Source of the DNA: Nocardioidaceae bacterium
GTDB lineage: Bacteria > Actinomycetota > Actinomycetes > Propionibacteriales > Nocardioidaceae
Length of the DNA stretch: 64,000 nucleotides
Direction of reading: 5' to 3'
Assembly (NCBI GenBank): GCA_013361955.1
Contig: JABFXA010000207.1
Span: 1,942-65,941, forward strand
In this document: piece by piece, positions 7,192 through 64,000 of the stretch
Layout of the letters: each line of letters opens with the position of its first letter
Position numbering within the stretch: the stretch's first letter is position 1
The notes under the pieces: generated by a model
Databases searched by the model: none
What the model was told of the DNA's origin: nothing
The model's input: the letters and a program-made list of their open reading frames with translations, nothing else
Made by a program: the position numbers and the translations under genes

Positions 7192-7219
7192 CCGGCCACG
7201 CTATCGACCACCGGCACGG

Positions 7220-8824: not shown

Positions 8825-8956
8825 ATGGCCGCATCGATCGCCATCGAGGAGGACTCCGGCGTGTTCTCGGGCCACGTGCACTCCCACGACGGCTACTACG
8901 CAGGCGACTTCACCGAGACCTGGTCGGACGCCTCGACCACGTGGCGGCACGCCTGA
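8825..8956 (+). CDS. small ORF (43 aa), unknown function
   Basis: Strong GGAGGTGG RBS; MAASIAIEEDSGVFSGHVHSHDGYYAGDFTETWSDASTTWRHA; followed by a hairpin. Confidence 0.45.
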   Translation: MAASIAIEEDSGVFSGHVHSHDGYYAGDFTETWSDASTTWRHA

Positions 8957-8969
8957 CCGCACCCACGGG

Positions 8970-9002
8970 ACGAGCCCCACGCCCAGCGGGCGTGGGGCTC
9001 GT
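8970..9002. terminator. perfect 15-bp stem hairpin, probable bidirectional terminator
   Basis: acgagccccacgccc-agc-gggcgtggggctcgt between convergent genes. Confidence 0.75.
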
Positions 9003-9017
9003 TCGCGGTCGACCGGG

Positions 9018-13655: not shown

Positions 13656-13892
13656 GCGTGAGTCCCCCCAGTTGATCCCCCCGCGCGGGCTCCGGCTCCC
13701 CAGCCGGCACGAGCCACGCACAGACCCTCGCGATGCGAGGGCAAGCACATCTTGCGTGCCGCAAATCGGGACGAGCCACCCGAACCCGGGAGTCCCCGGC
13801 GAAATGACCCGTACGGACCATCAAGTCCCCACCCCATCAGTCCGACGGTGCAGCAACCTGCCCGCCCGGCCGGGCCAGGCCGATGACGTCGA

Positions 13893-46459: not shown

Positions 46460-47854
46460 TCACGGCCGCCCCGGCCCGGCCTGGAGCGCGAGCACCGTCA
46501 CGTCGTCGTCGAGCCGAGAGTCGTCGACCAGCAGCGCCTCCAGGACGTGGTCGAGAAGCCCGTCCGGACCGATGTGCGGGCCACGCACCGCCTCCAAGCG
46601 CGCCAGCCCCTCGCTGATGGACCCGGTACGGCGCTCGACCAGTCCGTCCGAGTACAGCATCAGCGATCCGTTCGGCTGGATCCGGCAGGCTCGATCGACG
46701 TACGTCGCGCGCTCGGTGACCCCGAGCGGCGGGCCGGGATCGCCGTCGAGCAGCCGGCCGTCCCCCTCGGGCCCGACCACGAGCGGGTTGAGGTGCCCGG
46801 CGCTCGACCAGCGCACCACTCGGGTGGCCGGGTTCACGATCGCGTACAGGCAGGTGGTCAGGTCGGTCACCTCGAGCAGGTCCGCGACCCTGTTCACGCG
46901 AGCCAGGACCGCGGCGGGCGACGGTTCGTCGACAGCGAAGGCACGCAGGGCACTTCGCAGCTCCCCCATCGCGGTGGCGGCCCGCAGGTCGTGCCCGACC
47001 ACGTCTCCTACGACCAGCCCTACCTCGCCCGACGGCAGCGAGATGACGTCGTACCAGTCGCCGCCGATCCGCATCGAGGAGTTGCCCGGCTTGGAGCGCA
47101 CCGCGAACCGCAGGCCGGGCACCGCCGGCAGTCGATCCGGGAGCAGGCTGCGCTGCAGGTGATCGGCGACCGCCCGCTGCTCCGCCTCCCGGCCCAGAGC
47201 GTCGAGCAGGTTGCGACCCGCCCGCCGCAGCACCCAGAGCAGGAACAGCCAGCCGGCCAGCGCAGCGACCGCGGTGCCCACCAGCATCCACGCCACCATC
47301 ACCTGCTGGTCCCGCCGCTCGGTGGCGACCCGGTTCGCCGTGGCGGCCAGCCTGGCCGTCAACCGGGCCTGGCCCCCGACCAGGTCCTCGTAGGTGCGGT
47401 CGAACCGCTCCAGCCGCTGCTCACCGACCTGCCCCGTCGTCAGGCCGGCACGCACCAGCCGGAGCGCCTCGGTGACGTACGACCGTCGGGCGGACTGCAG
47501 ACCGGCCACCGCACCATCGAGACCCCCGGGCAGGTCGACCTCGCGCAGCTGGTCGAGGTCTCGCCGGAGCTGCCGGGCATGGCCCTGGGTCATCAGCAGC
47601 GTTCGGCTCAGTCGCGCCTCGGAACGAGTCCCCGCGGGCGCGGTCGCCTCGGCGACATCACCGCGAAGCGCGTCGTGCATCATGTCCGCGTCCTGGTTCA
47701 GCCGCTGCGCCGTGGCCAGCCCCTCCAGCACCCTCCCGGTGCGGGCGGTGCCGACCAGGGTGAAGATCACGGCACCCGCGACCACCGTGGTCCACACGGC
47801 TCCGAGGACCCCGAGAACCACCAGCCGGCGCGGCCATGCACGGCCAGTCCCCAC
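46460..47854 (-). CDS. PP2C/SpoIIE phosphatase with an extracytoplasmic helical sensor domain
   Basis: TM-sensor(DMMHDALRGDV)-TM; GGDWYD, VGDVVGH, SAGH, YSDGLVE, DDDVTVL. Confidence 0.9.
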   Translation of the reverse strand: MGTGRAWPRRLVVLGVLGAVWTTVVAGAVIFTLVGTARTGRVLEGLATAQRLNQDADMMHDALRGDVAEATAPAGTRSEARLSRTLLMTQGHARQLRRDLDQLREVDLPGGLDGAVAGLQSARRSYVTEALRLVRAGLTTGQVGEQRLERFDRTYEDLVGGQARLTARLAATANRVATERRDQQVMVAWMLVGTAVAALAGWLFLLWVLRRAGRNLLDALGREAEQRAVADHLQRSLLPDRLPAVPGLRFAVRSKPGNSSMRIGGDWYDVISLPSGEVGLVVGDVVGHDLRAATAMGELRSALRAFAVDEPSPAAVLARVNRVADLLEVTDLTTCLYAIVNPATRVVRWSSAGHLNPLVVGPEGDGRLLDGDPGPPLGVTERATYVDRACRIQPNGSLMLYSDGLVERRTGSISEGLARLEAVRGPHIGPDGLLDHVLEALLVDDSRLDDDVTVLALQAGPGRP

Positions 47855-48202
47855 CTGTCACCCCCCGGACGAGCGGCCTCGCACTCCCCCGCCCCGTCGG
47901 CCGCCTCTCCTCACGGCCGGATCGCACGAAGGTACCTCGCCGGCTCGGGTCTCCACGGTCGAGCACCGCAAATGACCCGAACGGGTGGGCAGCAGACAAC
48001 CCCTCGTGACCATGGGCAGACGTGCTCAGACCGCGACGATCACCCACATATCCGTACGTCGAGGAATGACCGCATCTGACCCGAGGTGCCCCGCCGCTGC
48101 ATCGGGCGATCTTCGAGTCGCTCGCGGCCGACCTCCGCAGGCGTCTCCCTCACGACTTCGACGTGATGGCCGAGACCGACACGACTGCTGCGCGCCAGCG
48201 GA

Positions 48203-48640
48203 CTAGCGGGTGAGCACGAAGTGGAAGCAGGGCGTCGTTTGCTTGGGGTGGCACGAGGACACCACCTGCCAGTACGCGTACGTCCACGCTTCGGCGACGA
48301 CGCCTGCTCCCAGGAAACCGTCGGCCGCACCGTCCCTTTCGCCGGCCGGATCACCGCTCTGAAGCCGCCCGGCCGAGGCGATGGTCGTGTTCTCGACGGG
48401 GCCGCTCGCGGCGAGAGCGACGGTCGCGACCGCACCACCAGCCAGCAACGCGAGGCCGGCCAACAGAGCCAGTCTCGGCGTCCATCCCGGCGCCGCGCTC
48501 TCGGCGTGACCCACCCGTCCAGCACCGCCAGGTCGACCCGCAATCGGCTTCCTTCGCCAAGTGCGCTCGGACCCGCACGACAACGTCTCGGCCGGCCAGA
48601 CCATCACCGGATCCCTCGAACGGTCCCCCACGGCCCCCAT
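48203..48640 (-). CDS. doubtful hypothetical protein in a degenerate region
   Basis: One hydrophobic segment (LALLAGLALLAGGAVA); no family motif. Confidence 0.2.
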   Translation of the reverse strand: MGAVGDRSRDPVMVWPAETLSCGSERTWRRKPIAGRPGGAGRVGHAESAAPGWTPRLALLAGLALLAGGAVATVALAASGPVENTTIASAGRLQSGDPAGERDGAADGFLGAGVVAEAWTYAYWQVVSSCHPKQTTPCFHFVLTR

Positions 48641-49713
48641 CGCGCGGCTCGTCAGTGCCGAGATGTGCGAACCGAGAGGTGTCGCCGCGAACCGAGTGCG
48701 TCGGCACAGTGGCTGCTGTGGCGCCGGCGGCTGACCTCGACATGCACGCTAGCCCTGACCCGGCGAGCCCGGTAGGGACGTCTAGCACGCCCGCAACCGC
48801 CTGGGCAGGTGGACTCACCACGAACCTCGGCAGGGGCGCGAAGCAGCCGACGACCAGGCAGCCATGCCCCCGCATCTGGCGAACAGCTCGAACATCCCGC
48901 TCCAGCGCCCGTCGACTGCTGACGCCCGGACTCGGCGGAGGGCCCGGCGAGCGGGTTCGTGCTCGCCCAGCGCGTGAACCGTGAACGCGATGCCGGTGAG
49001 CGCCGAAGTAGAGCGACCGTCCTCGACGGGGTCGACGTCGCCTGCGAGCCCGGTGGTAGAGGCGCAGCTCGGCCCAGTCTCGGCTGTCGACGTTCCGCAT
49101 CCAGTGGACGGTCGCACGGGCAAGGTCCTCGGCCGCGGCGACCCGCGGTGGACGACCACCAGGGTGCATGAGCGCGACGCTATTCACGCATCCGCGTCGC
49201 CGGCGCGCGACGACAAGCGCGTCGGCCATCGAGACAGACGTGACCGTGAGCAACGCGCCGGGCGCCCTGCTCGCGGTCGCGATCACCAGCCTCACCGCGT
49301 TCTGGGTCGTGACGTCGACGGCCCGGCTGTACCTCGACAACCTGTACGGCCCGTTCGGTGAGCACGGGGCGCTCGGGGCTCTGGCCGGCCTGGGCTGCGG
49401 CATCGGGGCAGGTGCCGTGAGCTTTGTCCTGACTCGAGGAGCCGCTCGACGGTCCCGGGCGCTGCTGGTCCTTCCAAGCACTACCCACCCGGAGTACAGG
49501 ACGGCTCAGCGGCTCGCTACTGCGTCGGCGTGGAGCACCGGATCCCGAACGGCTGACCCCACCGTCGTCGAGCAGGGGCGGCGAGGCGGGAAATCGCTCG
49601 ATCGAGGTGATGTCCGCGGCACGCTGTGGGCCGATGCTGTCGTACGCAACCGGCTGTTGCACGCCAGCACCCACGGGGTGCGGGCGCTCGGGGACGACGA
49701 GAGGTGGTGTCAG

Positions 49714-50610
49714 ATGTCCGATCCGTCACGTGAGCAGGTGCCTTCGACGGAGAACGTCTCGGGGGCAGCGGTCAGTCATGCCGCCGTCGCGCTGAGGTCC
49801 ATGGGGCAGCCGAACTCGGTGACGGGTGCCTTCGACTTCTGGAACGACCACTACGAAGGGCGACGGCTGTTCTCCGAGCTGCTCGGGACGTTCATGTTGG
49901 TGCTCGTGGCGGTGGGCGGTGGCATGGTCAGCGCGCACTTCGGGGGCGATGCGATTCCGTACGGCGCGAAGGTGGTCTCCCCGGCCCTGATGGTGGCGGC
50001 GGTCATCCTGTTCATGGGGACGGTCTCGGGTGCGCACCTGAATCCGGCGGTGAGCGTGGCGTTCGCGGCGCGCGGCGACTTCCCGTGGAAGCGCGTCCCG
50101 GCGTACATCGTCGCTCAGTTCCTCGGCGCCATCTTGGCCACGTTGTTGCTGTGGGCGTTCCTGGGCAAGGAGGGCAGCGCGGGGTTGACGCTGCCCGGCA
50201 GTGGGATCTCGACGTTCAGCGCGATGCTGTGGGAGGTGGTCCTCACCACGGGGCTGGTGAGCGTGATCCTGGGCACGGCATCGGGCGCCCAGCAGATCGG
50301 ACCGCTGGCGGCGGCCGCAGTGGGCAGCTACATCGCGTTGGCGGGGCTCTGGGGATCTCCGGTCAGCGGCGCGTCGATGAATCCGGCCCGGTCGTTGGGT
50401 CCGGTCCTGGTGAAGGGCGACTGGACCGCGTGGTGGGCCGACCTGGTGGGACCGTTGGTCGGTGCGTTCATCGCGGTGGCCTTCGCCTACGTGCTGCGCG
50501 GCGCGGGTGGCGGCAGGAGCGGGGTCGCGGCCGCGCAGGGCACGCTCGGGGTGGAATGGCACCCTGGCCCCGATCCTCGGCAGCAGAACCCACCCGCCAG
50601 CGCTGAGTGA
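49714..50610 (+). CDS. aquaporin / MIP channel
   Basis: SELLGTF, GAHLNPAVS and SMNPARSLGP (two NPA motifs). Confidence 0.95.
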   Translation: MSDPSREQVPSTENVSGAAVSHAAVALRSMGQPNSVTGAFDFWNDHYEGRRLFSELLGTFMLVLVAVGGGMVSAHFGGDAIPYGAKVVSPALMVAAVILFMGTVSGAHLNPAVSVAFAARGDFPWKRVPAYIVAQFLGAILATLLLWAFLGKEGSAGLTLPGSGISTFSAMLWEVVLTTGLVSVILGTASGAQQIGPLAAAAVGSYIALAGLWGSPVSGASMNPARSLGPVLVKGDWTAWWADLVGPLVGAFIAVAFAYVLRGAGGGRSGVAAAQGTLGVEWHPGPDPRQQNPPASAE

Positions 50611-50648
50611 GGAAGCACGACTGGTAGCAGCACCTGACAGGTCCCCGG

Positions 50649-51599
50649 TCACAGGACGGCGATCGGGTTCACCGGAGATCCCGTGGCGCCCGACAGCCGG
50701 AGCGGCGCGATCACGCACAGGAACGACCATCGCCCGGCCTGCTGGCAGAGCGCGAGGAGGTCCTCGAGCTGCAAGTAGTCCATCAGCATCAGGCCGAGTG
50801 CGTGGATGGCCAGCACGTGCACCGGGAAGTCCACCCCGTCCGTGAGAGCCGGAGCCGTGTCGCCGTTGCCGTCGTTGCCCAGGACCGCGACCTGACGCTC
50901 CGAAAAGAACGGGACCACCTCCGGGTGCAACCCCGTCCGGGCCTTGGCCACGTCCCACGGCCCCTGCTCGTTGCGACGTTGCCGATGACCGACCCGCACC
51001 AGCAGGATGTCGCCGGATCCGACCTCGACGCCCTGGCTGCGCTCGGCCGCGAGCAGGTCGGCCACCGTCACGTGGTCGCCTGGCTCGAGCCATGGCCGTC
51101 CGCGAGACCGCGACACGTCCAGCAGCACGCCCCGCCCGACGAGGCCGTCGGCAGCCGTTCTCACGGACAGCTCGGTTGCGCCGTCCTCGGTCAGGGTCGT
51201 GGTGGGTACGCCGTTGTACAGCTCGCCGTCGAAGATCACGTGGCAGAGGGCGTCGAGATGGCTGTCGGCGTCGCCGTGGATGTTCATCTCGATCCGGTCC
51301 ACGCCGAACGCCAGTCCTGTTCCGGACACCGCTGGTGGGCCCAACATGACGTGTCGGGCGGGCTCGGGGTTGTCCGGTGTCCGCCGGCCCGCCACGGGTG
51401 AGGCAAGCGAGACGGCGCGGCCCCACCTGACCTCGCCGGCGGCGGCGAGGGTCTCGGCCTCAGTGAGGTAGTTCAGTGCCCCGCGTCTGTCGTCAGGCCC
51501 CCACGGCACGCTTTCGCGCAACCGGCGGTACAGCGAGCGGAACTCGTCCTCAGACATCCGACCCGGCGAGCCGGAGCCGGTGCCTGCCGTCCGGGTCAT
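50649..51599 (-). CDS. cyclase/kynurenine-formamidase-like metal hydrolase
   Basis: GALNYL, H...SHLDALCH, GRGVLLD, H..AI...G....DY..LE.L, GATGSPVNPIA. Confidence 0.88.
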   Translation of the reverse strand: MTRTAGTGSGSPGRMSEDEFRSLYRRLRESVPWGPDDRRGALNYLTEAETLAAAGEVRWGRAVSLASPVAGRRTPDNPEPARHVMLGPPAVSGTGLAFGVDRIEMNIHGDADSHLDALCHVIFDGELYNGVPTTTLTEDGATELSVRTAADGLVGRGVLLDVSRSRGRPWLEPGDHVTVADLLAAERSQGVEVGSGDILLVRVGHRQRRNEQGPWDVAKARTGLHPEVVPFFSERQVAVLGNDGNGDTAPALTDGVDFPVHVLAIHALGLMLMDYLQLEDLLALCQQAGRWSFLCVIAPLRLSGATGSPVNPIAVL

Positions 51600-51733
51600 C
51601 CGCTCAGCCTCCCCGCCGCCGCTTGCACCCAGCATTCTGGGGGCTGCCACGCCGAGCAACCTCATTCGGCCGGGGTGAGGCGCCGGTGTCCGGGAGGCGT
51701 AGACGATCGCAGCTACCCGTCGGAAGGAGCATC

Positions 51734-52561
51734 ATGAGCGAGCAGAGGACCGACAAGCGACCGATCGTGCTCATCCATGGCTTGTGGATGACGCCCCGCA
51801 GCTGGGACCGCTGGGCGGAGTACTACCGCTCGAAAGGACACCAGGTCGTCACGCCTGCGTATCCCGGCTTCGAGATCGAGGTGGAGGCGCTGCGGGAGAA
51901 GCCCGAGGTGATCGCCGACGCAACCGTCCCCGACACGCTCGATCACCTCGTCGAGGTGGTCGAGGGCCTCGACGAACCGCCCATCCTGATGGGCCACTCC
52001 TTCGGCGGGACCTTCACGCAGCTCCTCGTCAACCGCGGCCTGGGTGCCGCGGCGGTGACGATCGACTCCGCGCCACCCGAGGGGGTGCGGGTCAACCCGC
52101 CGGCCCAGATCAAGTCGCTGCTCCCCATCCTGTCCAACCCCGCCAACCGGCACCGCGCCGTGGGCTTCACCAAGGAGCAGTTCCACTACGCGTTCGCCAA
52201 CACCTGCACTCGTGAGGAGTCCGACGCGGCCTACGACCGCCTGCACATCCCCGCACCCGGCAGCTGGGTGTGGGCGTACGGCCTGATCGCCAACTGGAAG
52301 CCCGGTCACCAGGACACCTGGGTGGACTACGACCTCGACGACCGCGCTCCCTTGCTGTTCATCATGGGCGGCAAGGACCACCTGATGCCCCCGTCGGTGA
52401 TCCGCTCGAACGCCAAGAAGTACCGCAACTCCGAGGCATTGACGGAGACCTACGAGTTCCCGGACCGCTCCCACTTCACCGGCGTCGAGCCCGGATGGGA
52501 ACAGGTGGCCGACTACGCGCTGGCCTGGGCCACCAGCCACGCGGGCATGCCCCGGCCCTGA
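51734..52561 (+). CDS. alpha/beta hydrolase
   Basis: LIHGLW, GHSFGG nucleophile elbow, GKDH, RSHF. Confidence 0.92.
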   Translation: MSEQRTDKRPIVLIHGLWMTPRSWDRWAEYYRSKGHQVVTPAYPGFEIEVEALREKPEVIADATVPDTLDHLVEVVEGLDEPPILMGHSFGGTFTQLLVNRGLGAAAVTIDSAPPEGVRVNPPAQIKSLLPILSNPANRHRAVGFTKEQFHYAFANTCTREESDAAYDRLHIPAPGSWVWAYGLIANWKPGHQDTWVDYDLDDRAPLLFIMGGKDHLMPPSVIRSNAKKYRNSEALTETYEFPDRSHFTGVEPGWEQVADYALAWATSHAGMPRP

Positions 52562-52883
52562 CCTGGATGGCGGACGCCGGCGCCGGGGCCCCACTCTCGT
52601 CCTTCGTCGAGGGCCCTAGGACGGCGCGTCAGCACCAAGAGCGCGGATCGCGGCGTGTGAGTGCGTTCCACGGCCTAAGGCGTGCCCGCCGCGCTCGCAC
52701 CCACGGGCGTGAGCGTGTCTCACCCGGAGGCAAGACTCGACGGGCACGCGCTGGCTGAGTACCCAGTAGGGAGCGAAGAACGCGTGCGATCCGCGACATG
52801 TGCGGACACTGGCCCTCGTGCCCAGTGCGGGATAGCGTGCACGGCCAACGGGCACCGTCGTCAGGCTTGGTGACAATACGAGC

Positions 52884-53972
52884 ATGCCGGCGACCTTGGA
52901 TGCTCAGTTCAGTCTCGACCTTCTCGTCAATGCTCAGTGCGCAAATGGAGCGCTACCGGCGAGCACGGTGCACGAGGTTTATCAGTTCGGGTGGTTGCGC
53001 GACGGATCCTGGTGCGCCTACGCCATGGATCGTGGTGGCCGGCCTGACGCTGCTGCCCGGTGGCACGACTGGGTGGCCGACACCCTGCTGCGTCATGAGC
53101 ACCGGGTGGACGAGGCGTTGAACGCTGTCGGCGCAGGAAAGGTCGATGGGCGGGTGATGATGCCGGCACGCTTCACGCTTGCTGGTGAGGAGGAGCCGGT
53201 CGCCCCCGCAGAGGAGTGGCCGAACTTCCAGACCGACTGTTACGGCTTCTGGCTCTGGGCCGCAACCGACCACGTCGTCCGCGCCGGAGGTCGCCCCGAT
53301 CCCACCGTTGAGCGTGCCATGCGTCTGGTCGTGCGGTACCTGCTGGGCGCCGGTGAGACACCCTGCTACGACTGCTGGGAGGAGTATCCGGGCCTGCTGC
53401 ACACATCGTCGCTGGCGGCGGTCTCGGCCGGGCTGCGTGATGCGGGCGAACTGCTTGGCGATGCTGCCGCACGTAGCTATGCCGAGACCATCCGACAACG
53501 GCTGCTGGGCGGCGAGTTCACCCTCGCGGAAGGATTCGTCAGGTCCGCCGGCGGGGACACCCGCGTGGACGGATCCCTGCTCTGGTTGAGCGTGCCGTTC
53601 GACCTTGTGCCAGTAGACAGCGACATCTTCCGGACCACCGTGAAAAGGATTCGAGAAGAGCTGCGCGCGCCCGGTGCCGGCGTCCGCCGCTACGTGGGCG
53701 ACTCCTTCTACGGCGGGAGTCAGTGGATCCTGTTGGCCGCGTCGTTGGGTCGGGTGGCCTTGGCCGAGGGGCAGGTCGATGAAGCCAGGGAGCTGCTGGC
53801 CTGGATTGAAGGAACGGCCACGAGCGACGGGTTTCTGCCTGAGCAGGTCGCCGTTGATGTGTACTCCCCGCACATGCTGGCGTTCTGGCGGGAGCGCTGG
53901 GGTGCAACCGCTACGCCGCTGCTCTGGTCGCATGCGATGCACCTCACCTTGTTGACGGAGCTCCGGTCATGA
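52884..53972 (+). CDS. GH15 (glucoamylase-like) glycoside hydrolase
   Basis: WLRDG, QTDCYG, DCWEE, LPEQ, PLLWSHA. Confidence 0.88.
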   Translation: MPATLDAQFSLDLLVNAQCANGALPASTVHEVYQFGWLRDGSWCAYAMDRGGRPDAAARWHDWVADTLLRHEHRVDEALNAVGAGKVDGRVMMPARFTLAGEEEPVAPAEEWPNFQTDCYGFWLWAATDHVVRAGGRPDPTVERAMRLVVRYLLGAGETPCYDCWEEYPGLLHTSSLAAVSAGLRDAGELLGDAAARSYAETIRQRLLGGEFTLAEGFVRSAGGDTRVDGSLLWLSVPFDLVPVDSDIFRTTVKRIREELRAPGAGVRRYVGDSFYGGSQWILLAASLGRVALAEGQVDEARELLAWIEGTATSDGFLPEQVAVDVYSPHMLAFWRERWGATATPLLWSHAMHLTLLTELRS

Positions 53973-54076
53973 CCTCGGGGTCCAGAACAGTCGGAGCCAT
54001 CCGCTCATCGGCAGCTCCGCCCGGCCGCAGCGCGCGGTATCCCCGGCATTCGAGACAACTGCTGGGCTCGTCGGCT

Positions 54077-54962
54077 TCAAGCAGTGAGTGGAAGCGTCCG
54101 TGAGACGGTGATGCTGTTCCGGGTGGTCACATAGCCGAGGTGTTCGTTGAGGCGACGCATCGGCGCGTTGCCGACTTGTGTCCACGTGTAGATCTCTTGC
54201 ACTCCGTGGTGAGCCGCCCAATGGAGGGTTCGGCGCTTGAGATGTGACGCGATGCCGTGGCCGCGCCAGCTGCGGCGGACTGCGGTCAACGCGTTCTCGG
54301 CGCGTTCGGGTCGGTCTGCATCGCGGTTGAGACCGGCACAGCCGATCACCTCGTCGTCGCTCAAGGCCAGGAACATCGGGTCGCCGTACCACGATGTCCT
54401 CCACTGCTCGGCGCTGATCTGCAGCGGCGTGTACAGCGCGAAGTCGGCAAGCACCTCCTGGCCGAACGTCTCGAAAGAGGCAGCCCACAGGTCAGGGCGT
54501 TCGCTTGCCTCGATCACGTCTACGCCGGCCGGCAGAGTGCCCGGGGCCGGCTCGTCGCCCACCACGCGTACCTGTTCGACCTCGCGGTCGACCTCGACGA
54601 ACCCGTACCGCTCTGCGAATGCCAGGGATCCGTCGTCGTCCACACCGGCCACGACCTTGGACAGGCCCAGGTCGCTGCAGTGCTCGGCCAGGACACGCAG
54701 GAGCGCTGACCCCATGCCCCTGCGGCGATGCTCGGGTCGGACGCGTGGGGCGACGAATCCCGCCCCGGTGGTGTCAGACCGGTCCGCGATGCCGGAACCC
54801 ACCACGTCACCGTCCGTGACTGCGAGCAGCAGCAGTCGATCCCCCGAGTCCTGCTCACGCATCTCCGCGACGGTGAGGCAGCGCTCCTCTGGCAAGACGG
54901 GCGAGCCGGACGGCTCGCCACGCTTCGTACTCCTCGTCGCTGCGGCAGACCACCAGCTGCAT
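54077..54962 (-). pseudogene. tandem GNAT acetyltransferase with a +1 frameshift near 54900
   Basis: MQLVVCRSDEEYEAWRAVRLA (from ATG 54962) continues as VLPEERCLTVAE in another frame; two GNAT motifs (RRRGMG, RGHGIA). Confidence 0.75.
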
Positions 54963-55371
54963 AGACGGCAATGTAGTCGGCCGACCAGCCCTTCCAGGGT
55001 CAGCACGACGCGCGCGCTCGGCTTGTTGATGTCGTCACCTCGTTCGCACCTGCACGATCGACCCCTGGGCTGTGCCCGAGCGGCCTCGGCACACGGGGGC
55101 GAGCCGGCGTGCGGGGCGCGGCGAGCGATCAGGCGAAGGTCTCAATCTGAGCTAGCTGTGGGAACCGCCCCGATCGACACCGACCACTACACCAACCTGC
55201 TCGCAGCCTCCGTCATCGAGACCGTCCGCTGGCGACGCGAGTACGAAGCCGCCAAGCACCAACATGCCGACCGACTCGGCGACGCCGGCGCCGCGTTCTC
55301 GGCCCGGTGGTCCCCGTCTGGTCCCCACCGTCCGAGCCTCGCGGTGGTACGACCGGCCCGTGGAGACGACA

Positions 55372-55406
55372 GAGGGGCCTGACCTGGACGTCCAGGTCGG
55401 ACCCTC
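55372..55406. terminator. hairpin directly downstream of the tRNA fragment
   Basis: Perfect palindrome gacctggacgtccaggtc (55381-55398) flanked by gaggg/ccctc. Confidence 0.6.
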
Positions 55407-55408
55407 GC

Positions 55409-55452
55409 GGTCGGGCTGACAGGATTTGAACCTGCGACCCCTTGACCCCCAG
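55409..55452 (-). other. 3' fragment of tRNA-Pro(GGG), probable att site (not an intact tRNA)
   Basis: Minus strand ctggggg-tcaag-gggtc-gcagg-ttcaaat-cctgt-cagcccg-acc: anticodon loop, T-arm and acceptor 3' strand; D-arm and 5' half absent. Confidence 0.9.
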
Positions 55453-55549
55453 AGACCCCATGAGCGTGATCTTGGGTGTGCACCAGTGTGTCTGGGTGGG
55501 CCCTGGCACGCTCAGCGGGCCGCTAGGGTCGGGGTCAGGCTGGGGCCGT

Positions 55550-55571
55550 TTGTGACACGTCTTGTGACACG
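55550..55571 (+). repeat. direct repeat TTGTGACACG x2, candidate integrase arm-type sites
   Basis: ttgtgacacg-tc-ttgtgacacg about 100 bp inside the att core. Confidence 0.55.
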
Positions 55572-55767: not shown

Positions 55768-57420
55768 TCAGATCCCAAGCCTCTTGGCGACCTCGGCGCC
55801 CCCGCCTCTGCGCACCACCTCGGGGTCGCCCACGACGACGAGCTCATCGGTGGCCCGCGACATCCCGACGTACAGCCGCTCGCGCGACCGGTCACGGCTG
55901 CCGTCCTCGTTAACGCAGAGCACCACGGCGGGGGGCTCCAAGCCCTTGCACCCAAGGACATGTCCGTAGAAGACGTCGGCGTCGTCGAAGAACGTCACCC
56001 AGTACCCGTCTTGGTCATGGAAGTCGGTCCGCTCGACCTGCACGGGGTGGCCGCGGCCCGTGGTCAGGAGGCAGACGCTCCCGGCTTTCCATCCGGCGTC
56101 GAGCAGTCCGTCGACCTCATCGTCCGCCGTCGCGATGGCGTCCTCGGTAGTGCAGGGCACGAAGCGCACCGCGGGCCCATCGCCGCCCCGCGCGTACATC
56201 CGGCTCGGCGCGAGCGGGCCGAAGGTCTGGTGGATCTGACGGGTGTTGCGCAGATTGTGGTCCAGCACCAGCGGCACCAGCTGCACCGGCGGGCGTCCAA
56301 AGCGGGCGAAGATCCGCTGGTTCTCGTCGGAGAAGACGTAGAGCCCTCCGGCAGTCTCATCCTTCAACGCCCGCAGCACCGGCCGCCACCAGGACTCCGC
56401 GAAGTCCTGCGCCTCGTCGACCACCACCGAGTCGTAGCGCTTGCCCTCCGGCAAGTCCTCGGCCAAGCGCGCCATGATGTCGGGAAGCTCAGACTCCCAA
56501 AACTCGCTGTTGGTGCGGTCCCCGTCTGGCGCGCCCCACTGACGACCGAACTCGTGGAAGGTGCCCACGAACGCAGGGCGGTCCTTGCGGTGCCAGGTCG
56601 CCACCTGACGCTTCAGATGCTCCGCGAGCCCGATCGAGTAGCAAAGCAGCGCGACGCGCTCCGACCTCCGGTCCGCACGTCCCCGAGTCAGCTCCTTGGC
56701 CTGCTGCAGGGCTAGGACGGTCTTGCCGCTCCCCGCACCGCCGCGGACCTCGACTCGGTTCAGCAACCGCGTGACCTTGAGGATCATCGCCTGCTCCTGG
56801 GTGAGCCGGTCTGCCGTCGACGCCCGCTCGGCCGCCTCGGCGTTGACGTCGTACGCCGTGGGCAGGCGCCCGGTCAGGATGTCGCCGATCGTCTCTACGT
56901 CCTCGTGCGTCGGGGCCTGCTTCCCCTGTCGCGCCCTGGCGGCGTTCTCGCGGATCCGCGCCGGCAGGTCGCCCTGGTCGTGCCGGTCGTGCAGCGACCA
57001 TCGCGGGCAGTCTGGTCCCGCGTCCTGGTCCGGGAACTCCGAGAAGGGGATGACCACGGCATGGCCCCACGCAATGTGGTTCCGATTGTTCCACCGGGGA
57101 TCGTGCGCCACGTAGTCGCGGAGCGCGTACTTCGTGGTGCGCACCTGCTGGACCGGGTCGATCTGCCTGGAGCGACCTCGGTGCTGCTGCCACCACCCCT
57201 GCTCGTCGCGCCAGACGCTGCCGCCCTTGACCTCCACCACGACCGCACCTACCTCCGGCATCAACACGACGAGGTCCGCTTCGTGGTCCTTGACCTCGTC
57301 GGTCAGCCGCAGGTTCGCGATGAGCACGTCGTCTGGACCGAGTCCGTCGCGCATCCGCTCCCACACCTCGCGCTCCGACGCGGTGGTAAACACGGGGTCG
57401 TCGGGAATCAGCCGCACCAT
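55768..57420 (-). CDS. NERD nuclease fused to SF1 (UvrD-like) helicase/ATPase (550 aa)
   Basis: HEADLVVL...VEVKGG; GGAGSGKT; VVDEAQD; NLRN; KGLE; LYVGMSRA. Confidence 0.9.
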   Translation of the reverse strand: MVRLIPDDPVFTTASEREVWERMRDGLGPDDVLIANLRLTDEVKDHEADLVVLMPEVGAVVVEVKGGSVWRDEQGWWQQHRGRSRQIDPVQQVRTTKYALRDYVAHDPRWNNRNHIAWGHAVVIPFSEFPDQDAGPDCPRWSLHDRHDQGDLPARIRENAARARQGKQAPTHEDVETIGDILTGRLPTAYDVNAEAAERASTADRLTQEQAMILKVTRLLNRVEVRGGAGSGKTVLALQQAKELTRGRADRRSERVALLCYSIGLAEHLKRQVATWHRKDRPAFVGTFHEFGRQWGAPDGDRTNSEFWESELPDIMARLAEDLPEGKRYDSVVVDEAQDFAESWWRPVLRALKDETAGGLYVFSDENQRIFARFGRPPVQLVPLVLDHNLRNTRQIHQTFGPLAPSRMYARGGDGPAVRFVPCTTEDAIATADDEVDGLLDAGWKAGSVCLLTTGRGHPVQVERTDFHDQDGYWVTFFDDADVFYGHVLGCKGLEPPAVVLCVNEDGSRDRSRERLYVGMSRATDELVVVGDPEVVRRGGGAEVAKRLGI

Positions 57421-57606
57421 GCCCAGCACCCTGCCACGCGGCGCCGGCCGCGACAGCCGAACTCCAGCGTTGCCCCGGCACACCACGGGTCGAACCGGGC
57501 CGGTGTGTGCGAGGAATCCGACCGTTCGCTCCGGAGGGCCGCGCCGCGGGTGCGCTGCTGGTTCCCCACGATTCGAGGCAGGAGCGCGGCAAGCAGCGAC
57601 CACGAC

Positions 57607-58671
57607 CTAGCCGGCGGCACCGCCCGGCAGCCGGATCTCGGAGTTCCACCGCATCCTCATCGTGTCCGGGCCGGCCGGGACGAGGTCGAGGACGGCCACC
57701 TCATCCCCCGGCGTCGGTGTTGAGCATCCCTGAACGGTTACGATTCTGATCAGCTCCGGCCCACCGGCCTCGATCTTGAAGGACCGGCTGTCAGGCTGCT
57801 CCGCGACGATGCCCCGCAAGTCGCGCTCTGACGTCGCATCCGAGGCCCAGTACGGCCAGCACACCGTCCGGAACGCGCATGTCCGGCACGCCGTCTGTGC
57901 GGGATTCGCGGGGACGTTTCCAGCAGCGACGGCGTCGTTGAACCCAGCGATCGCCTGCTGGGCCTCCTGCACCGCGCTGCTCACGGCCACGCTGTCGATC
58001 TGGAACGACGTCTCGTTTCCGGTGGCGGACTCGATGACGCCGACGGCGGGCAGTTGGCCGCAGGCGGCATCCACCAGGTGCGCGTACAGCAGGAGCTGGC
58101 GGCGCTGACCAGGCTGGACGCCTGCCTGGTGGACCCCGGACTTGAGGTCGATGACGCGCAATTGGCCGTCCCGCACCTCAACCCGGTCGGGGGTGCCGAA
58201 CACGCCGGCGTCTGGGTCCTTCAACTTCCGTTCGATCCAGGGGAAACCGGGTGCGTGCTCCGGAGCGGCCGCCGAAGCCGGAGCAAGGTCCGGCCAGGTC
58301 GCCGACAGCTTCCGGAGCGTGCGGACCCGAGTTGCCACCAGACCGTCCCACTGAGCGACCGGGGGCACCGGCCGACCGGGCCAGGCCTTGGCGACCTTCC
58401 GCACCTGCTCGGCGAGGAGGCCCTCCCACTCCGCTTCGAGCCAGGATCGTCGGTCCTGACCGACTGGTGGGTGCTTTGTCGCGGCGATCTCGTGCAGGCC
58501 GTGGGCCACGACGCCCAAGGCGGTCCGCGGGCTCGGCTTGCTGAGGCCCCGGGTCGAGGGGTCACGCTGGTAGGCGAGCTTGCGGGGACAGCGCTCGTAT
58601 GCGTTCAGCGCGCTCGGCGAGACCATCTCAAGCGGGTCCGCCGCCGGGGGAACCCAGGCCAGAAGGGTCAT
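57607..58671 (-). CDS. PD-(D/E)XK RecB/Cas4-like nuclease with four conserved Cys (354 aa)
   Basis: SPSAL..YERCPR, G...H, GTPDRV...VIDLKSG, QLLLYA, CRTCAFRTVC; ATGA overlap with the helicase stop. Confidence 0.88.
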   Translation of the reverse strand: MTLLAWVPPAADPLEMVSPSALNAYERCPRKLAYQRDPSTRGLSKPSPRTALGVVAHGLHEIAATKHPPVGQDRRSWLEAEWEGLLAEQVRKVAKAWPGRPVPPVAQWDGLVATRVRTLRKLSATWPDLAPASAAAPEHAPGFPWIERKLKDPDAGVFGTPDRVEVRDGQLRVIDLKSGVHQAGVQPGQRRQLLLYAHLVDAACGQLPAVGVIESATGNETSFQIDSVAVSSAVQEAQQAIAGFNDAVAAGNVPANPAQTACRTCAFRTVCWPYWASDATSERDLRGIVAEQPDSRSFKIEAGGPELIRIVTVQGCSTPTPGDEVAVLDLVPAGPDTMRMRWNSEIRLPGGAAG

Positions 58672-61600
58672 GCCAGCCGCCGGATCAGGCCGATCGGGCG
58701 CCGCAGCGCCTCGAACACGTCGCTCTGGGCAACCGAGGAGGACATTCCCGCAAGCTCGTCTAGCGCGGTGATCTGCTCCTCGACGGCGCGGTCCTCCGAC
58801 CGCCACCACAGCGGGTGTCCCACCAAGACGGATTTGCCGGTCCCGGTGTTGTGGAGGTAGGAGATGCCGTCGGTGGTGGCGCCGGCCTTCAGGCTGATCA
58901 GGCCGGTCGCGGCAATCCCTTCGGCGGCGCGCTGGCCGAGTTCCATCCACCGGGCCAGTGCGAGCGGCTCGTCGGCAAGCAGGTCGAGCATGTCGAGGGC
59001 AAGGCGCCAGTCCAGCAGTCCGTGCAGCCGGCTGTTGTCGTAGGACCGCAGACAGTCCAGGCAGGAGGAATTGCAGTCCGCGTGCGCCTTCTCGGACCAC
59101 CGGTCGCGCAGCGACAGCCGAGTGTCGGAGAGCATCCGCTCGAAGTTGTGCTCGGCCCCGATCTCCGCGGCATAGCCGGCGCCGTTGTCCAGCGCATCGG
59201 CGAGGAAGACCTGCATCGAGCCGTCACCTTGCGGGTGCAGGCCGAAGACCAGCTCTTGCGGATCGATATCGAGCAGCTGTTTCGCCCCGCGACGCAGCAC
59301 CTCGGCCAGGGAGCGGTAGGCGGCCAGCCCTGCCGGCACCTTCTCCGGCGAGTAGGGGACCAGACCACCGGGCGCGTGCGCGCCGTTGAGCCCGACCGTC
59401 AGCGCGTCGGTGGTGCGCAGTTCGCCGATCGCGATCTGCCTGGAGCCGACAAGGCTGTTAGGGGGCCAGGCCTTGAGGTCCGCGAAGAGCTCGGGGTCTG
59501 CCGCCAGCCACGACCCGTAGTCCTGGCCGATGTCGAAGAGCCTCCCGTTGTTGTCGTTGACCTGGACCAGCCGTGCCTGACCGTAGCTGCTGAGTCGGGC
59601 TCCGCGAACCGTCGCGTCCGTGTCCGGGTCGCCGTCAACTGAGATCGTCTGCGAGCCCGCGTTGGCGGACTGGTCCTCGTCGCCGTCGTAGTCAACCTCC
59701 TGGTAGGTGGTCCTGAACCCGCGAGGCTGGTGCATCGGGACGATCCGAAGGCCGGAGAGACAGATCGAGCACACTGGCTCGACGGCGTCCACGATGCAGG
59801 CGCCACACTCGTCGCACAGCCCGATGAGGATCTCGGGGCCGAGCGGGTCGACCGGCTTCATCCCCTTGTAGTCGGGCGTCCAGTCCGCGAAGCCCGCCAC
59901 GGTGTGCACGGCACCGTCCCGGACGATCTTGGCGCCGGGCGCGCACCTCGACCCCGCCTGGCTCAGGGGCCGGTCCGAGACCGTCACCCCGTCGAGGTCC
60001 TCCAACTTGGACGGACGCTTCCGAACCAGCCGGCGTACGCGGGTCGGGAAGCCGAACATGGGCAGGACGCCGTAGGTCGCCAGCAGCTCGCTGAGCTCGT
60101 CGGTCAGCCCGGAGTCGCGGGCCACCGCCGCATCGATGTCGGCAACGAGGCCGCCGGTGGCTAGCCAGTCACGGATCGCTGTGACCGCAGCCGGTTCGAG
60201 CCCGGTGAAGGCGCAGAACCGCTCGACCACCTGACCCAGCGCGGGCGAGGCAAGTGCGGTGGCGATCTCCGCGCGTCGGTCAGGCCATCCAGAGCTGGGC
60301 CCGAAGACGCCGTGGATGCTGTTGGCGGTCCACTCCGGCGGCTCACCGAGCGACTGGAACGCCAGCCGGAGCGCTTCGGCTGCGACCACCCGGCGCACGA
60401 TGCTAACTCGATTGAGGTCGAGGAACGGCTGCGGCGGGTCGTCGCCGGTCATCCTGCGGGGCGCACGGAAGTAGTCGTCGTCGTGCGATCGGTCCCGGCA
60501 GACCGTCACCGCGTAGGAGAAGATCTGTCCAGACCGGCCGGCGCGGCCCACGCGTTGCTGGTAGTTGAACCGTTGCGGAGGCATGTTGGCCATGACCGTG
60601 GAGCGGAGCGAGCCGATGTCGACTCCGACCTCCATCGTGGTGGTCACGCTCAGCACGTCGAGCGGCACCGTCAGTGCGTTCTCGGCGGGGGCCGGCAGCA
60701 GCACCTCCTTGAACACCCGCGCTCGGCGGCGCTGTTCGCTCAATGGCTTGGTCTGACCGGTGAGCTCGGCAGCGGCGAGGCGCCGCGGCTGCTGGCGTGA
60801 TAGCCAGCCGTAGTAGTCGCCCTCGTCGTCGGTCGCGTCGGCGTCCACCTTGACCAGCGCTGGGCGGTTGCAGCCGACGTTGGCGCAGACGCCCGCCGCG
60901 GCGTGCCCGTGCATGAACCCGCAGACGTCGCAGCGCCAGCGTTCGGTGCCGAGCGGGACCAGTGTCAGTGGCGATGAGAGGGAGGCGAGGTCCAGGAGCC
61001 AGTCGCTGGCGATCCCAGTCGACTTCAGGAGGCGTTTGACGTCGTCGGTGACGTCGCCGAGGTCCAGGCCGTGCACCTCGGCGATCGTCTTGAGGTAGCC
61101 GGCCACGCTCCGCGGGACGTTGGTGGATGGCTTGGCGTCGGTGCCGGCCCACCGGTTGCGGATGCCCAGTATCCGGATCACTGCCGCCAGAATCTGGTCC
61201 CGGACGGTGGGGTCGTGGACGATCCCCGAGGATGCCGGCGGCGCCGCGAAGTACGCGATGCCGACGGACTCCAGATCCCGTCCCGCCCTGCCGAAGAGGC
61301 CGCCGGCAAGTGCCTGCACCAGCTTCTCGGCCTGCATCGCTGCCTGCGTCTCCCGAGGGCCGCCGAGCGGAAGCGGCATCCATAGGTCGGGAGCCGGAGG
61401 CGCGAACGCCTTCCACCAGGGACTGGCGTCCTGGTTGACGGCCGCTGACGGCCCGGTGCCACCGGGCGGGATCCCGAGCCGGACCAGCCGGTCGCAGATC
61501 TCGTGCCGCAGCTCGGGCCAGCCGATCCGGACCTCCTCGTCGGCGACGAACGCAGCCTCGACCGCCTCCTGCTCTGTGTCGTCGAGTGGCACATACGCCT

Positions 61601-64000
61601 GCTTCCTCAACAGTTCGAGGGCGTCGGGGTGTGCCTCCTTGAACGTGGTGAACGCCGCTTGCTCGGCCAGCGTGAGCGTCTCCAGCGCAACTCCGCGGTC
61701 GACGATGTCGCGCAGTGAGGGGCGCTGGGCGGTCAGCACCTGCTGGGTCATCTGCCTGATCACGTCGCGGTAGTGGTTCAGCGCGATCCCAGCAGCCGTC
61801 CGGGCGGCGTCGTCTCGGCTGTCGGTGAAGACGATGGTGCGCGACTCGCTGGCCTTGTCGCCGAGGCTCCGCACCAGTTGCGAGAGGTAGAGCTGGGTGG
61901 ACTGTGCGGCGCCGGAGGTGTGCGCTCGGATGGGGCTGCGGACCGTGCCGGCGAAGAACTTCTCGCCCGGGTTGTACCCGCGTGAGTCGCACCGGGGGCA
62001 CCGGTCGGGCAGCGCCGGTATCCGCTGCCGCTCCCCCAGGTCGGCCTCGACCTTCATGACCCAGCCGTCGAGGGTGTCCCCGGCGGCAGTGACCAGGCCG
62101 GTGCCGTGGTCCAGGCTGGCTGGGGCGAAGGCGAAGGAGGCCTCCTTCTTGCTGCCCGGGACCTTCTTCGCCCAGGAGGGGTCCGGCTGGACGGGCTTCT
62201 GTCCGGGCCAGAACCAGACGAACTCGTCGTGGGAGCGTCGGAAGATCGGGGCGATGTCCGAGGCGACCTCGCCGACGTTCGCCGATGCGATGACGACGCC
62301 GTCGGGCTCGCCGTGCTCGACCGAGGTCCGCTCGACGACGTGACCCCCGAGGCTGATGTCGCCGCAGGAGAAGCAGTAGAGGAGCTCGAGGACCCTGGCG
62401 CCGCAGTCCGAGCAGCTGAGGGTCGGGATCCCGTAGAGCTTGCCGACCCGGCGGCCTTCGCGTGCGTCTTCGGCGACACCTGAGCACTGCGGATCGCAGC
62501 AGGCCCACATCCCGCGCATGGTCCGGACGAACTGGTGTGCCCGCAGGGGGATGGTGCCGCTGAGGTCTGACGCTCCCGCCAGCGAGGTGAGCGCAGCCGC
62601 CAGGCCCTGCAGGCCGTCATCGGGGGCTCCGAACAGCCGTTCTGCGATCAGCGAGGACTCGGTGGCCCGGACGCGACCGGACTCGGGATCGACGCAGGCA
62701 GCGGCGATCTGCTCGGAGACGATGCTCGCCGCGGGCGCGGTCCCTACGAGCAGGGCGGCCCGGTCGAGCCCGGAGAGCGGCGTAATCGCCCGCGGGGCTC
62801 CCGCAGTGACGTGGAAGGACGAGCCGTCCAGCCCGAAGAACTGCTCGAGGAAGTCCCGGCCGCCGCTCTCACCGGACAGCGATGCACTAGTGGCGATGCA
62901 CCGCAGCTGCGGGGAGTCCGGGGCCAGCCCGAGCCGGTTGAGCAGGTTCCGGACGACCATCGCCACCTCGCTGCCCTGGGTTCCCCGGTACAGGTGCAGC
63001 TCATCGACGATGAGGGTGAAGACGTGGTCCGCCGAGGCGTCCAGCCACGCCCGGGTCTGGCTGAACAGCGGGTCCTCGAACGCGCGCATCAGCATCGCGT
63101 TCAGCATCGAGTAGTTCGTCACCAGGACGTCCGGCGGCGTCTCCACCATGTCCCAGCGGACCAGCATCTCGTGGGCTCGCGGGTCGGGGAACTGCGCCAG
63201 GTCGCCCTCGCTGACGCTCGCGTCGACGAGGCGCCGGAACTCGGATGTCTGCTCCTCCAGGTTCGCCACCAGCTCGGCGAAGCCGTTGCCGCGGCCGTCG
63301 GCGGGGCGCCGCGAGGTTCCGAGGGTGACGCCGGTGTAGCGACCGAACCAGAGTGGCTGACCCGGCAGCGCCGCGCCGATCCGCCGGGCCGCCCGACGGA
63401 GCCTGGTCATCTGGTCCTCGACGAGCGCGTTGGTCGGGTAGAGGATCATCGACCGAACGGCCGGCATCCGCGTCTCCGGCTTGCGGATCGGGCGCCATCG
63501 ACGCGGGTGGGGCTTGTCGTTCCACCACAGGTCGGGCGGCGGTTGGGCGGACCAGGTCCTGGCCTCTTCGACCAGCCGGAGCAGCATCGGCAGCAGGAAG
63601 CTCTCGGTCTTGCCGGAGCCGGTTCCGGAGGTGACCACAACGTTGCGCCCGGCTTGTGTGCCGCCGCGGAAGTGGCAAGCGACCGCCTCGGCCTGGTGGG
63701 CACGGAGCCTCACGGGGTGGTCTGGGTCGGTGAAGTCCCCGAAGAGCGCGCGGCCGACGATCTCGGCCGACTCCGCTGAGACTCCCGCGGCAGCGGCCGT
63801 GGCCAGCAGGTCGACGGTCGCGTCATAGGGCAGCACCGGCTCGAGCAGGCACTCGCTGCGCAGGTTGCCGTCGGCTCGCAGCAGTCCGCGCCGTTCGTCC
63901 GACAGCCTGGTGTCCCGCAGCCAGTACTGGGTGTCGATGTAGCGGAGATAGGCCGAGGCGAGGTCGTCGCGCAGCGTCAGGGGCGTCAGGGGCGTGGTCT
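58668..64000 (-). CDS. very large SF2 DEAD/DEAH helicase with DUF1998-type C-terminus (DruE/YprA-like); start lies beyond the window
   Basis: RAHQ, SGTGSGKTESF, YPTNAL, TNYSML, DELH, SAS, VFTDSR, TTTMEVGVDIG, QQRVGRAGR, CNSSCLDCLRSYDN; frame stays open to 64000 (LRDDLASAYLRYIDTQYWLRD). Confidence 0.92.
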   Translation of the reverse strand, partial: TTPLTPLTLRDDLASAYLRYIDTQYWLRDTRLSDERRGLLRADGNLRSECLLEPVLPYDATVDLLATAAAAGVSAESAEIVGRALFGDFTDPDHPVRLRAHQAEAVACHFRGGTQAGRNVVVTSGTGSGKTESFLLPMLLRLVEEARTWSAQPPPDLWWNDKPHPRRWRPIRKPETRMPAVRSMILYPTNALVEDQMTRLRRAARRIGAALPGQPLWFGRYTGVTLGTSRRPADGRGNGFAELVANLEEQTSEFRRLVDASVSEGDLAQFPDPRAHEMLVRWDMVETPPDVLVTNYSMLNAMLMRAFEDPLFSQTRAWLDASADHVFTLIVDELHLYRGTQGSEVAMVVRNLLNRLGLAPDSPQLRCIATSASLSGESGGRDFLEQFFGLDGSSFHVTAGAPRAITPLSGLDRAALLVGTAPAASIVSEQIAAACVDPESGRVRATESSLIAERLFGAPDDGLQGLAAALTSLAGASDLSGTIPLRAHQFVRTMRGMWACCDPQCSGVAEDAREGRRVGKLYGIPTLSCSDCGARVLELLYCFSCGDISLGGHVVERTSVEHGEPDGVVIASANVGEVASDIAPIFRRSHDEFVWFWPGQKPVQPDPSWAKKVPGSKKEASFAFAPASLDHGTGLVTAAGDTLDGWVMKVEADLGERQRIPALPDRCPRCDSRGYNPGEKFFAGTVRSPIRAHTSGAAQSTQLYLSQLVRSLGDKASESRTIVFTDSRDDAARTAAGIALNHYRDVIRQMTQQVLTAQRPSLRDIVDRGVALETLTLAEQAAFTTFKEAHPDALELLRKQAYVPLDDTEQEAVEAAFVADEEVRIGWPELRHEICDRLVRLGIPPGGTGPSAAVNQDASPWWKAFAPPAPDLWMPLPLGGPRETQAAMQAEKLVQALAGGLFGRAGRDLESVGIAYFAAPPASSGIVHDPTVRDQILAAVIRILGIRNRWAGTDAKPSTNVPRSVAGYLKTIAEVHGLDLGDVTDDVKRLLKSTGIASDWLLDLASLSSPLTLVPLGTERWRCDVCGFMHGHAAAGVCANVGCNRPALVKVDADATDDEGDYYGWLSRQQPRRLAAAELTGQTKPLSEQRRRARVFKEVLLPAPAENALTVPLDVLSVTTTMEVGVDIGSLRSTVMANMPPQRFNYQQRVGRAGRSGQIFSYAVTVCRDRSHDDDYFRAPRRMTGDDPPQPFLDLNRVSIVRRVVAAEALRLAFQSLGEPPEWTANSIHGVFGPSSGWPDRRAEIATALASPALGQVVERFCAFTGLEPAAVTAIRDWLATGGLVADIDAAVARDSGLTDELSELLATYGVLPMFGFPTRVRRLVRKRPSKLEDLDGVTVSDRPLSQAGSRCAPGAKIVRDGAVHTVAGFADWTPDYKGMKPVDPLGPEILIGLCDECGACIVDAVEPVCSICLSGLRIVPMHQPRGFRTTYQEVDYDGDEDQSANAGSQTISVDGDPDTDATVRGARLSSYGQARLVQVNDNNGRLFDIGQDYGSWLAADPELFADLKAWPPNSLVGSRQIAIGELRTTDALTVGLNGAHAPGGLVPYSPEKVPAGLAAYRSLAEVLRRGAKQLLDIDPQELVFGLHPQGDGSMQVFLADALDNGAGYAAEIGAEHNFERMLSDTRLSLRDRWSEKAHADCNSSCLDCLRSYDNSRLHGLLDWRLALDMLDLLADEPLALARWMELGQRAAEGIAATGLISLKAGATTDGISYLHNTGTGKSVLVGHPLWWRSEDRAVEEQITALDELAGMSSSVAQSDVFEALRRPIGLIRRLA

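Follow-up and report, generated by a model that had tools for sequence, protein, structure and literature searches.

A short piece of a proline tRNA gene lies in the right-hand part of the window (the whole stretch of 64,000 nucleotides of Nocardioidaceae DNA analysed here), and it raises the question of what kind of junction it marks. On the minus strand it reads CTGGGGGTCAAGGGGTCGCAGGTTCAAATCCTGTCAGCCCGACC and covers tRNA-Pro(GGG) from the start of the anticodon loop through the encoded ...ACC end, comprising the 7-nt anticodon loop (GGG), the 3′ side of the anticodon stem, the variable loop, the T arm, the 3′ acceptor strand, the discriminator base and CC. These 44 nt agree with the tRNA-Pro(GGG) 3′ end of the genus without a mismatch (blastn-short against the contig, E 1.8e-20) and is 100% identical to the corresponding part of the gene in at least seven relatives from the genus, where ARAGORN confirmed that the gene is intact. 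In an alignment with eleven loci the base just 5′ of the loop (window position 55,453) is already unlike the tRNA. ARAGORN calls no tRNA in the window, and thus the stub is a fragment and not a gene. A sequence-only reading had described exactly this, a tRNA 3′ part that begins at the anticodon loop and loses its resemblance at once on the 5′ side, and that description is confirmed.

No second remnant of the tRNA-Pro(GGG) 3′ end was found by blastn-short across the 69 kb contig, and the stub copy is unique in the assembly. Its break point, the first anticodon-loop base, is also the break point of displaced tRNA fragments in two other genomes (G029 and G045) and approximately so in two more (G001 and G031). 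Since the same break recurs in several genomes, the boundary is reproducible and is not a chance truncation. The segment from the anticodon loop to the 3′ end is one recognised class of tRNA integration site, and these observations support the view that integration into that segment of tRNA-Pro(GGG) left the stub behind as an att-type scar. The features discussed below are collected in Table 1.

Table 1. Features at and around the tRNA-Pro(GGG) stub, in window coordinates
Feature	Position	Strand	Description
Left block of five cargo-like genes	49168–55006		MIP channel, cyclase, alpha/beta hydrolase, GH15, double GNAT (Pfam)
Tyrosine integrase 3′ relic	55257–55382	+	Last ~35–40 codons, past the catalytic Tyr motif; converges on the stub
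GC-rich hairpin directly 3′ of the tRNA end	55366–55408	−	Fold −25.4 kcal/mol, z −3.1; kind found beside integrase-bearing elements of relatives
tRNA-Pro(GGG) stub	55409–55452	−	Displaced tRNA 3′ part; probable att core common to two flanking elements; 44/44 identity
Conserved arm of right-hand island (distal, P-type)	55453–55571		93/119 identical to G045 beside its tRNA-Pro fragment
NERD nuclease-UvrD/SF1 helicase	55768–57603	−	First gene of right island; Pfam NERD + UvrD; PADLOC NERD+UvrD / RTasNERD-Hel models
DruK-like PD-(D/E)XK / Cas4-like nuclease	57607–59100	−	PADLOC DruK 190.9 bits; Pfam PDDEXK_1
DruE giant helicase, Druantia type II-like operon	58668–63836	−	PADLOC DruE2 1604 bits

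The same tRNA gene is also occupied in related genomes. Among 40 relatives searched, at least nine carry the tRNA segment in two to four copies, 4–55 kb apart. In every genome checked, only one copy is intact by ARAGORN and always lies at the end required by integration into the tRNA 3′ part, and the remaining copies are fragments downstream of the intact tRNA and on its strand. The fragments start exactly as in the window in G029 and with few changes in G001 and G031, and in others a few bases later, in the anticodon stem. These varied copies and starts indicate that tRNA-Pro(GGG) is an integration site that has been used repeatedly in the lineage, probably by more than one integrase class. 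Relatives also differ in the occupancy of the site: two (G012 and G024) have a single tRNA-Pro(GGG) and no detected second fragment, other relatives hold one to three islands of differing content, and the DNA of the window's DruK and DruE genes has no match in any of the 40.

Immediately to the left of the stub lies what is left of an integrase gene. About 130 nt to the left of the stub, and likewise the stretch from 55280 through the stub, show 75–80% DNA identity to the sequence directly after the intact tRNA-Pro in G019, G020, G029 and G031, and in G019, G029 and G031 the matching sequence is the 3′ end of an ORF that converges on the tRNA and encodes a PF00589 tyrosine integrase. The corresponding ORF of the window (55158–55382, 74 aa) keeps no Pfam domain; only its tail, the part of an integrase that follows the catalytic-tyrosine motif, matches the C-terminus of the G029 integrase (46% over 35 aa, E 9e-8) and the G019 tail (24/28 residues identical). 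The direct repeat TGGTCCCC occurs inside the relic at 55308 and 55319, and a left arm repeat, GGGGACCA, is present twice, 83 nt from the core and in the window only left of the stub. This homology to integrases that adjoin intact tRNA-Pro genes indicates that the stub with its hairpin derives from a restored tRNA whose 3′ half an element had brought in, beside the integrase of this pSAM2-like element, and nearly the whole integrase of the left element appears to have been deleted since. Mapping of PF00589 matches against the att copies of relatives revealed the intermediates of such a loss: intact integrases converge on displaced fragments in G001 (398588–398980, beside the fragment at 399233) and G035 (800877–801251, beside 801404), an integrase with an internal stop (233894–234274) lies beside the fragment at 233640 in G019, and shorter integrase-tail scars follow the intact tRNAs of G017 and G020. 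The window is the far-decayed end of this series, which runs from intact integrase through pseudogene to tail scar.

The hairpin between relic and stub belongs to the same arrangement. The fold in Table 1 is that of the minus-strand segment 55366–55410, and 2 of 200 shuffles fold equally well. It had been called terminator-like, and this holds for its stability and fails otherwise, as there is no U-tract in the segment and a simple terminator scan makes no call; nor does the junction match a known RNA family, a canonical terminator or a promoter. G019 has a comparable hairpin that separates its intact tRNA from the integrase, and the hairpin that natively follows the tRNA in the genus (GAAGAACCGGCTCTGACCTGCGGAAACGC...) is a different sequence from that of the window.

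G029 bears on the parent of the left relic: there the integrase lies directly downstream of the intact tRNA-Pro, the next gene is RepSA (pSAM2-type initiator, PF20199, 494 bits) and a stub is 4 kb away. No xis, repSA, tra or spd gene was found in the window, and of the modules that lie between the att sites of an AICE, namely int with or without xis, a rep gene (RepSA, RepAM or Prim-Pol) and an FtsK-like tra gene, it keeps the integrase tail only. Thus, the left flank of the stub is a relic of a pSAM2-like element and not itself an AICE member; by analogy with this one relative, the parent element may have carried RepSA. A tblastn search with the G029 Int and RepSA proteins located a full copy in the assembly (G000) only on contig C102, beside a tRNA-Thr gene. 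There, at about 6478–9412, RepSA (55% identical to that of G029) is followed by an integrase that converges on tRNA-Thr(CGT), a pSAM2-like module whose tyrosine integrase is the only PF00589 match in the assembly.

Composition sets both flanks of the stub apart from the rest of the genome. The genome has a GC content of 72.5% and the left block 68.8%, and the 6.4 kb left of the stub and the 11.9 kb right of it each lie farther from the genome's tetranucleotide profile than all of 300 random 10-kb segments. Tetranucleotide and GC profiles together outline one unbroken atypical zone that begins near 49000, takes in the stub and lasts until the contig ends. Neither flank is syntenic with any of the 40 relatives, and in the nearest relative (G017) the genes of the left block do not lie together but on separate contigs. 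Given the foreign composition and this scattering, both sides of the stub look acquired, and the left block is probably the remains of the older element or island.

These results bear directly on the proposal that the stub is a border between island and native chromosome, with the DNA downstream of the original tRNA on its left and one element on its right. The geometry is correct for such a simple boundary, the right side is island-like, and the left genes are metabolic and have no mobility function. However, the sequence immediately left of the stub is the 3′ relic of another element's integrase together with a hairpin of the element type, distinct from the native downstream hairpin of the genus, and the 6 kb beyond it, as far as about 49000, are compositionally foreign and syntenic with no relative. 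We therefore consider a simple boundary unlikely, and the claim of a chromosomal left side is not sustained.

No outer stub lies in the 57 kb to the left of the window stub, even with up to 9 mismatches allowed in 44, and so the array is truncated or decayed on that side and its older element has no visible outer boundary. The composition turns atypical in 1.3 kb without a convincing gene (47860–49170) that follow a SpoIIE-family phosphatase gene (46460–47854); this stretch is possibly the decayed outer edge of the acquired region, and no att-like remnant was found in it. Two further observations concern the left part of the window. A 1600-aa ORF (9018–13820) coincides with another stretch of outlying composition, where the tetranucleotide distance exceeds the 99th percentile. 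Inside the left block, between the end of the hydrolase gene (52561) and the start of the GH15 gene (52884), positions 52655–52775 hold a core of about 95 nt, GGCGTGCCCGCCGCGCTCGCACCCACGGGC.TGAGCGTGTCT.ACCCG.AGG.AAGAC.CGACGGGCACGCGC, which is conserved at 85–92% at six sites in five relatives from the genus and has no Rfam or Pfam match. A compensatory change is visible in the G004 copy (GTGCTCG...CGAGCAC), and the tRNA-Pro island of G002 contains a multi-copy tyrosine recombinase (316 aa) whose gene is preceded, at a distance of about 430 nt, by the copy in that genome. This core is a candidate structured RNA or mobile-element end.

The right flank of the stub is conserved in one other genome. 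A family search with the right-arm repeat (below) found G045, a member of another genus, in which 119 nt with 78% identity to window 55453–55571 (E 8.4e-22) lie beside a tRNA-Pro stub that is itself 43/44 identical. Identity falls to background (37–42%) in the outer flanks of this match. Further right in G045, 27.3 kb from its stub and on the same strand, comes an intact tRNA-Pro(GGG) on the minus strand, which is the arrangement that the sequence-only reading had predicted for the far end of the window island. A sharply bounded flank that is common to two genera at an att core, and gives way to unrelated cargo, is the signature of a mobile element arm. This arm is known from two genomes: no family member besides that of G045 was found among 401 family genomes, all GTDB species genomes, JGI metagenomes, IMG/VR and PLSDB. 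Matches to the tandem repeat in G065 and G177 were set aside as arm relatives, their contexts being unrelated.

The arm contains an inverted repeat, GAGCGTG/CACGCTC, at about 55461–55468 and 55508–55515, and is closed by the tandem repeat TTGTGACACG at 55550–55559 and 55562–55571, the only two copies of this 10-mer in the window. In the window genome it folds no better than its shuffles (z −0.9). The TTGTGACACG repeats lie 98 nt from the core, and in G029 and G031 the repeats common to both arms lie at 97 and 86 nt; the TTGTGACACG repeats are putative arm sites, and probably bind the recombinase or a directionality factor of the right island. In G029 and G031 a single element carries one short repeat on both arms, 86–97 nt from the core (TTGGACCA, present twice, in G029 and GGGG(A)CCA/CGGGACCA in G031). 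In the window the two arms differ, with two copies of GGGGACCA on the left and two of TTGTGACACG on the right.

The island of G045 is complete and gives a second view of the right-hand family. It spans 27.3 kb (C1:693208–720511; L055 10209–20000 and L056 1–17512) between the tRNA-Pro stub and the intact tRNA, and encodes a BTAD-nSTAND1-WD40 protein, an AAA_16/NACHT-like NTPase, two MMPL transporters and IS110 copies, with an HTH gene of the phage family phrog_645 adjoining the tRNA. No tyrosine or serine recombinase was found in the complete island, only IS110. Neither its tRNA-proximal arm nor the HTH gene has a match in the window genome. With the proximal side of G045 unmatched here, and the left-arm type of the window joined to the tRNA 5′ half in relatives, the arms are modules independent of each other, which makes the window junction a hybrid of two elements and not the attP of one.

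In sum, the att copy in the window is internal and is flanked by the arms of two elements, on the left the integrase-side arm of G019, G029 and G031 and on the right the distal arm of G045, two types that occur together nowhere else in the genomes searched. We conclude that the stub is probably the internal att core of a tandem (accreted) array of integrated elements at tRNA-Pro(GGG). One could instead suppose that both flanks belong to a single element, so that the locus is the relic attP of an element that either never recombined here or was formerly a plasmid, its integrase having been deleted later. The order of integrase 3′ end, hairpin, convergent tRNA 3′ half and other arm is indeed that of a pSAM2-type attP, as in the architecture of G029, and the two flanks are alike in their foreign composition. 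Against this stand the partners of each arm elsewhere (in G045 the right arm has different ones on both sides, and the tRNA 5′ half is the partner of the left arm in G019, G029 and G031), the different arm repeats here as opposed to the same repeat on both arms of the single G029 and G031 elements, and the absence of replication or transfer genes on either side. A relic attP therefore seems quite improbable to us.

The genes beyond the right arm are, as the evidence supports, defence cargo with foreign composition. Of the Druantia type II genes DruM, DruF, DruG and DruE, the seen part consists of DruE2 and of DruF2 spread over two frames; a DruK-like nuclease, whose true start is probably near 58.6 kb, accompanies them. 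DruF lies just beyond the window (window-equivalent 64011–67162 on contig C292) and is split into two overlapping frames, 64011–66497 and 66308–67162, which match DruF2 profile positions 271–1010 and 4–228 with 838 and 302 bits, respectively; this split is either a frameshifted pseudogene or an assembly error. The contig ends about 200 bp past DruF. DruG was not found among the Druantia II-like genes up to the contig end, and the position of DruM lies past that end. The visible 12 kb of the right island contain no integrase, replication or transfer gene. The claim that everything from 55453 rightward is an integrated element is supported by the arm common to G045, the foreign composition and the defence cargo.

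The NERD helicase requires separate comment. It is single-copy in the assembly, and 16 of 41 relatives have chromosomal homologues with 67–75% DNA identity at unrelated loci, for example beside recD in G020; a supposed pairing of the helicase with a DruE-like gene in G020 was rejected, the neighbour being RecD. With such chromosomal homologues, this gene alone is no proof of foreign origin. It lends some credit to the idea that only the left side was ever an element, that an ordinary deletion or rearrangement removed the tRNA 5′ half and that the right side is resident DNA, an idea with which the lack of a visible recombinase on the right also agrees. Against it, the tRNA is broken at the same nucleotide as in G029 and G045, the right flank is a conserved arm of the kind that borders the tRNA-bounded island of G045, and the Druantia genes are missing from the 40 relatives and are foreign in composition. 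We regard this explanation as highly improbable.

What can be said of the ends of the array depends on the assembly. Contig C292 is 69.3 kb long, comes from a MAG of 478 contigs that is 90% complete, and ends at window-equivalent position 67361, 12 kb to the right of the stub. Neither an intact tRNA-Pro(GGG), nor its 5′ half, nor any further stub was found in the whole MAG. Past the right contig end, no overlapping MAG contig and no match in JGI metagenome contigs extends the sequence. All three tRNA-Pro isoacceptors, der and cmk are missing from this MAG in spite of its rated completeness; a match on contig C362, considered as the der/cmk backbone that precedes the tRNA in G017, proved to be a paralogue in another context. 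The region of the tRNA-Pro(GGG) locus seems to be missing from the assembly or the bin, perhaps owing to its repeated att copies and its foreign composition. A MAG so fragmented, and an occupied site that will always hold two or more copies of the repeat, make it necessary to ask whether two true loci that share the 44-nt repeat were misjoined in the metagenome assembly. We think that a chimera of this kind is very improbable indeed: typical reads and large k-mers are longer than 44 nt, the composition is continuous over the junction, and both half-joins are seen independently in other assemblies, stub with arm in G045 and 3′ half with integrase tail in G019, G029 and G031.

Returning to the tandem array, its history was probably as follows. 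A pSAM2-like integrative element, its integrase gene converging on the tRNA 3′ end, would have brought its own tRNA 3′ half and hairpin. Decay of this element would have left the hairpin and the last ~35 integrase codons (55257–55408), and the genes at 49–55 kb may belong to it too. A second, unrelated island would have recombined with the same core at the anticodon loop, so that its arm (55453–55571) now abuts the stub, and its cargo (NERD helicase, DruK, DruE and DruF) would run rightward past the contig end towards the intact tRNA. By this geometry, this genome's own intact tRNA-Pro(GGG) should lie further right. Geometry allows either order of arrival for the two elements, as a newcomer can use either the restored tRNA or the displaced stub (PMC5704250, PMC3218068).

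A more specific possibility is that the right-arm family consists of integrase-less islands with defence cargo (Druantia and the NERD helicase here, STAND NTPases in G045), moved in trans by pSAM2-like integrases that share the tRNA-Pro(GGG) core. Such borrowing fits the complete G045 island, which has no recombinase, and the integrase-bearing neighbours seen in arrays, and at present we give it a small chance of being right.

Comparison with well-studied systems is informative in understanding this junction. Integration systems of the pSAM2 type insert into a Pro-tRNA gene (PMC2440964). In pSAM2 of Streptomyces ambofaciens and the pSAM2-like AICEs the integrase reads towards an att site that overlaps the Pro-tRNA 3′ part and RepSA lies upstream (PMC2440964), a layout like that of G029, whereas the window keeps about 35 integrase codons and lacks xis, repSA, tra and spd. 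Tandem AICEs can leave a 44-bp att site between them, as in S. avermitilis (PMC2440964); they can carry integrases of different subfamilies, and tRNA remnants can serve as integration sites (PMC3218068). The pairs AICESav3728/AICESav3708 (Streptomyces avermitilis tRNA-Arg) and Fean5518/Fean5534 (Frankia tRNA-Lys) resemble the window in having two elements at one tRNA 3′ end with a short att copy between them. In the window, however, the first partner is an integrase tail, the second has no AICE genes in its visible 12 kb, and neither end of the array is seen.

In Streptomyces coelicolor, direct repeats of 43 bp that copy the Pro-tRNA 3′ end enclose an island (PMC2440964), and it is like the window in its large cargo, which includes defence-type genes, and in its repeat of about 43–44 bp. 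That island keeps its integrase (SCO6806) beside the tRNA, whereas the tRNA end of the window island is not seen on the contig. Decay followed by accretion at att sites gives rise to composite islands (reviewed in PMC5704250). In the CIME/accretion model, from the ICESt1 family (Pavlovic 2004 and Bellanger 2011, as reviewed in PMC5704250), an element integrates, decays so that att is kept and the integrase and transfer genes are lost, and a new element then enters the att site. The G045 island, with att ends and no recombinase, and the window junction both fit this scheme, although the model was developed for elements of Firmicutes that use protein-gene or tRNA-Lys sites, and the site here is an actinobacterial tRNA-Pro. 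The window junction is thus a further, partly decayed example of a process known in actinobacteria, and what it adds is modest: the defence cargo and the newly recognised conserved arm.

For annotation, the lesson is that a tRNA stub alone is no proof of an edge between island and core genome, since an older, degraded element can pass for a chromosomal flank. With the conserved arm as a sequence tag, more islands of its family may be found. The locus shows a route by which a Druantia-type defence operon has entered an uncultured actinobacterium, and in this lineage tRNA-Pro(GGG) has served time and again as a landing pad at which elements pile up and decay. If the right-hand islands do borrow integrases in trans, this hot spot would be an exchange platform for defence cassettes.
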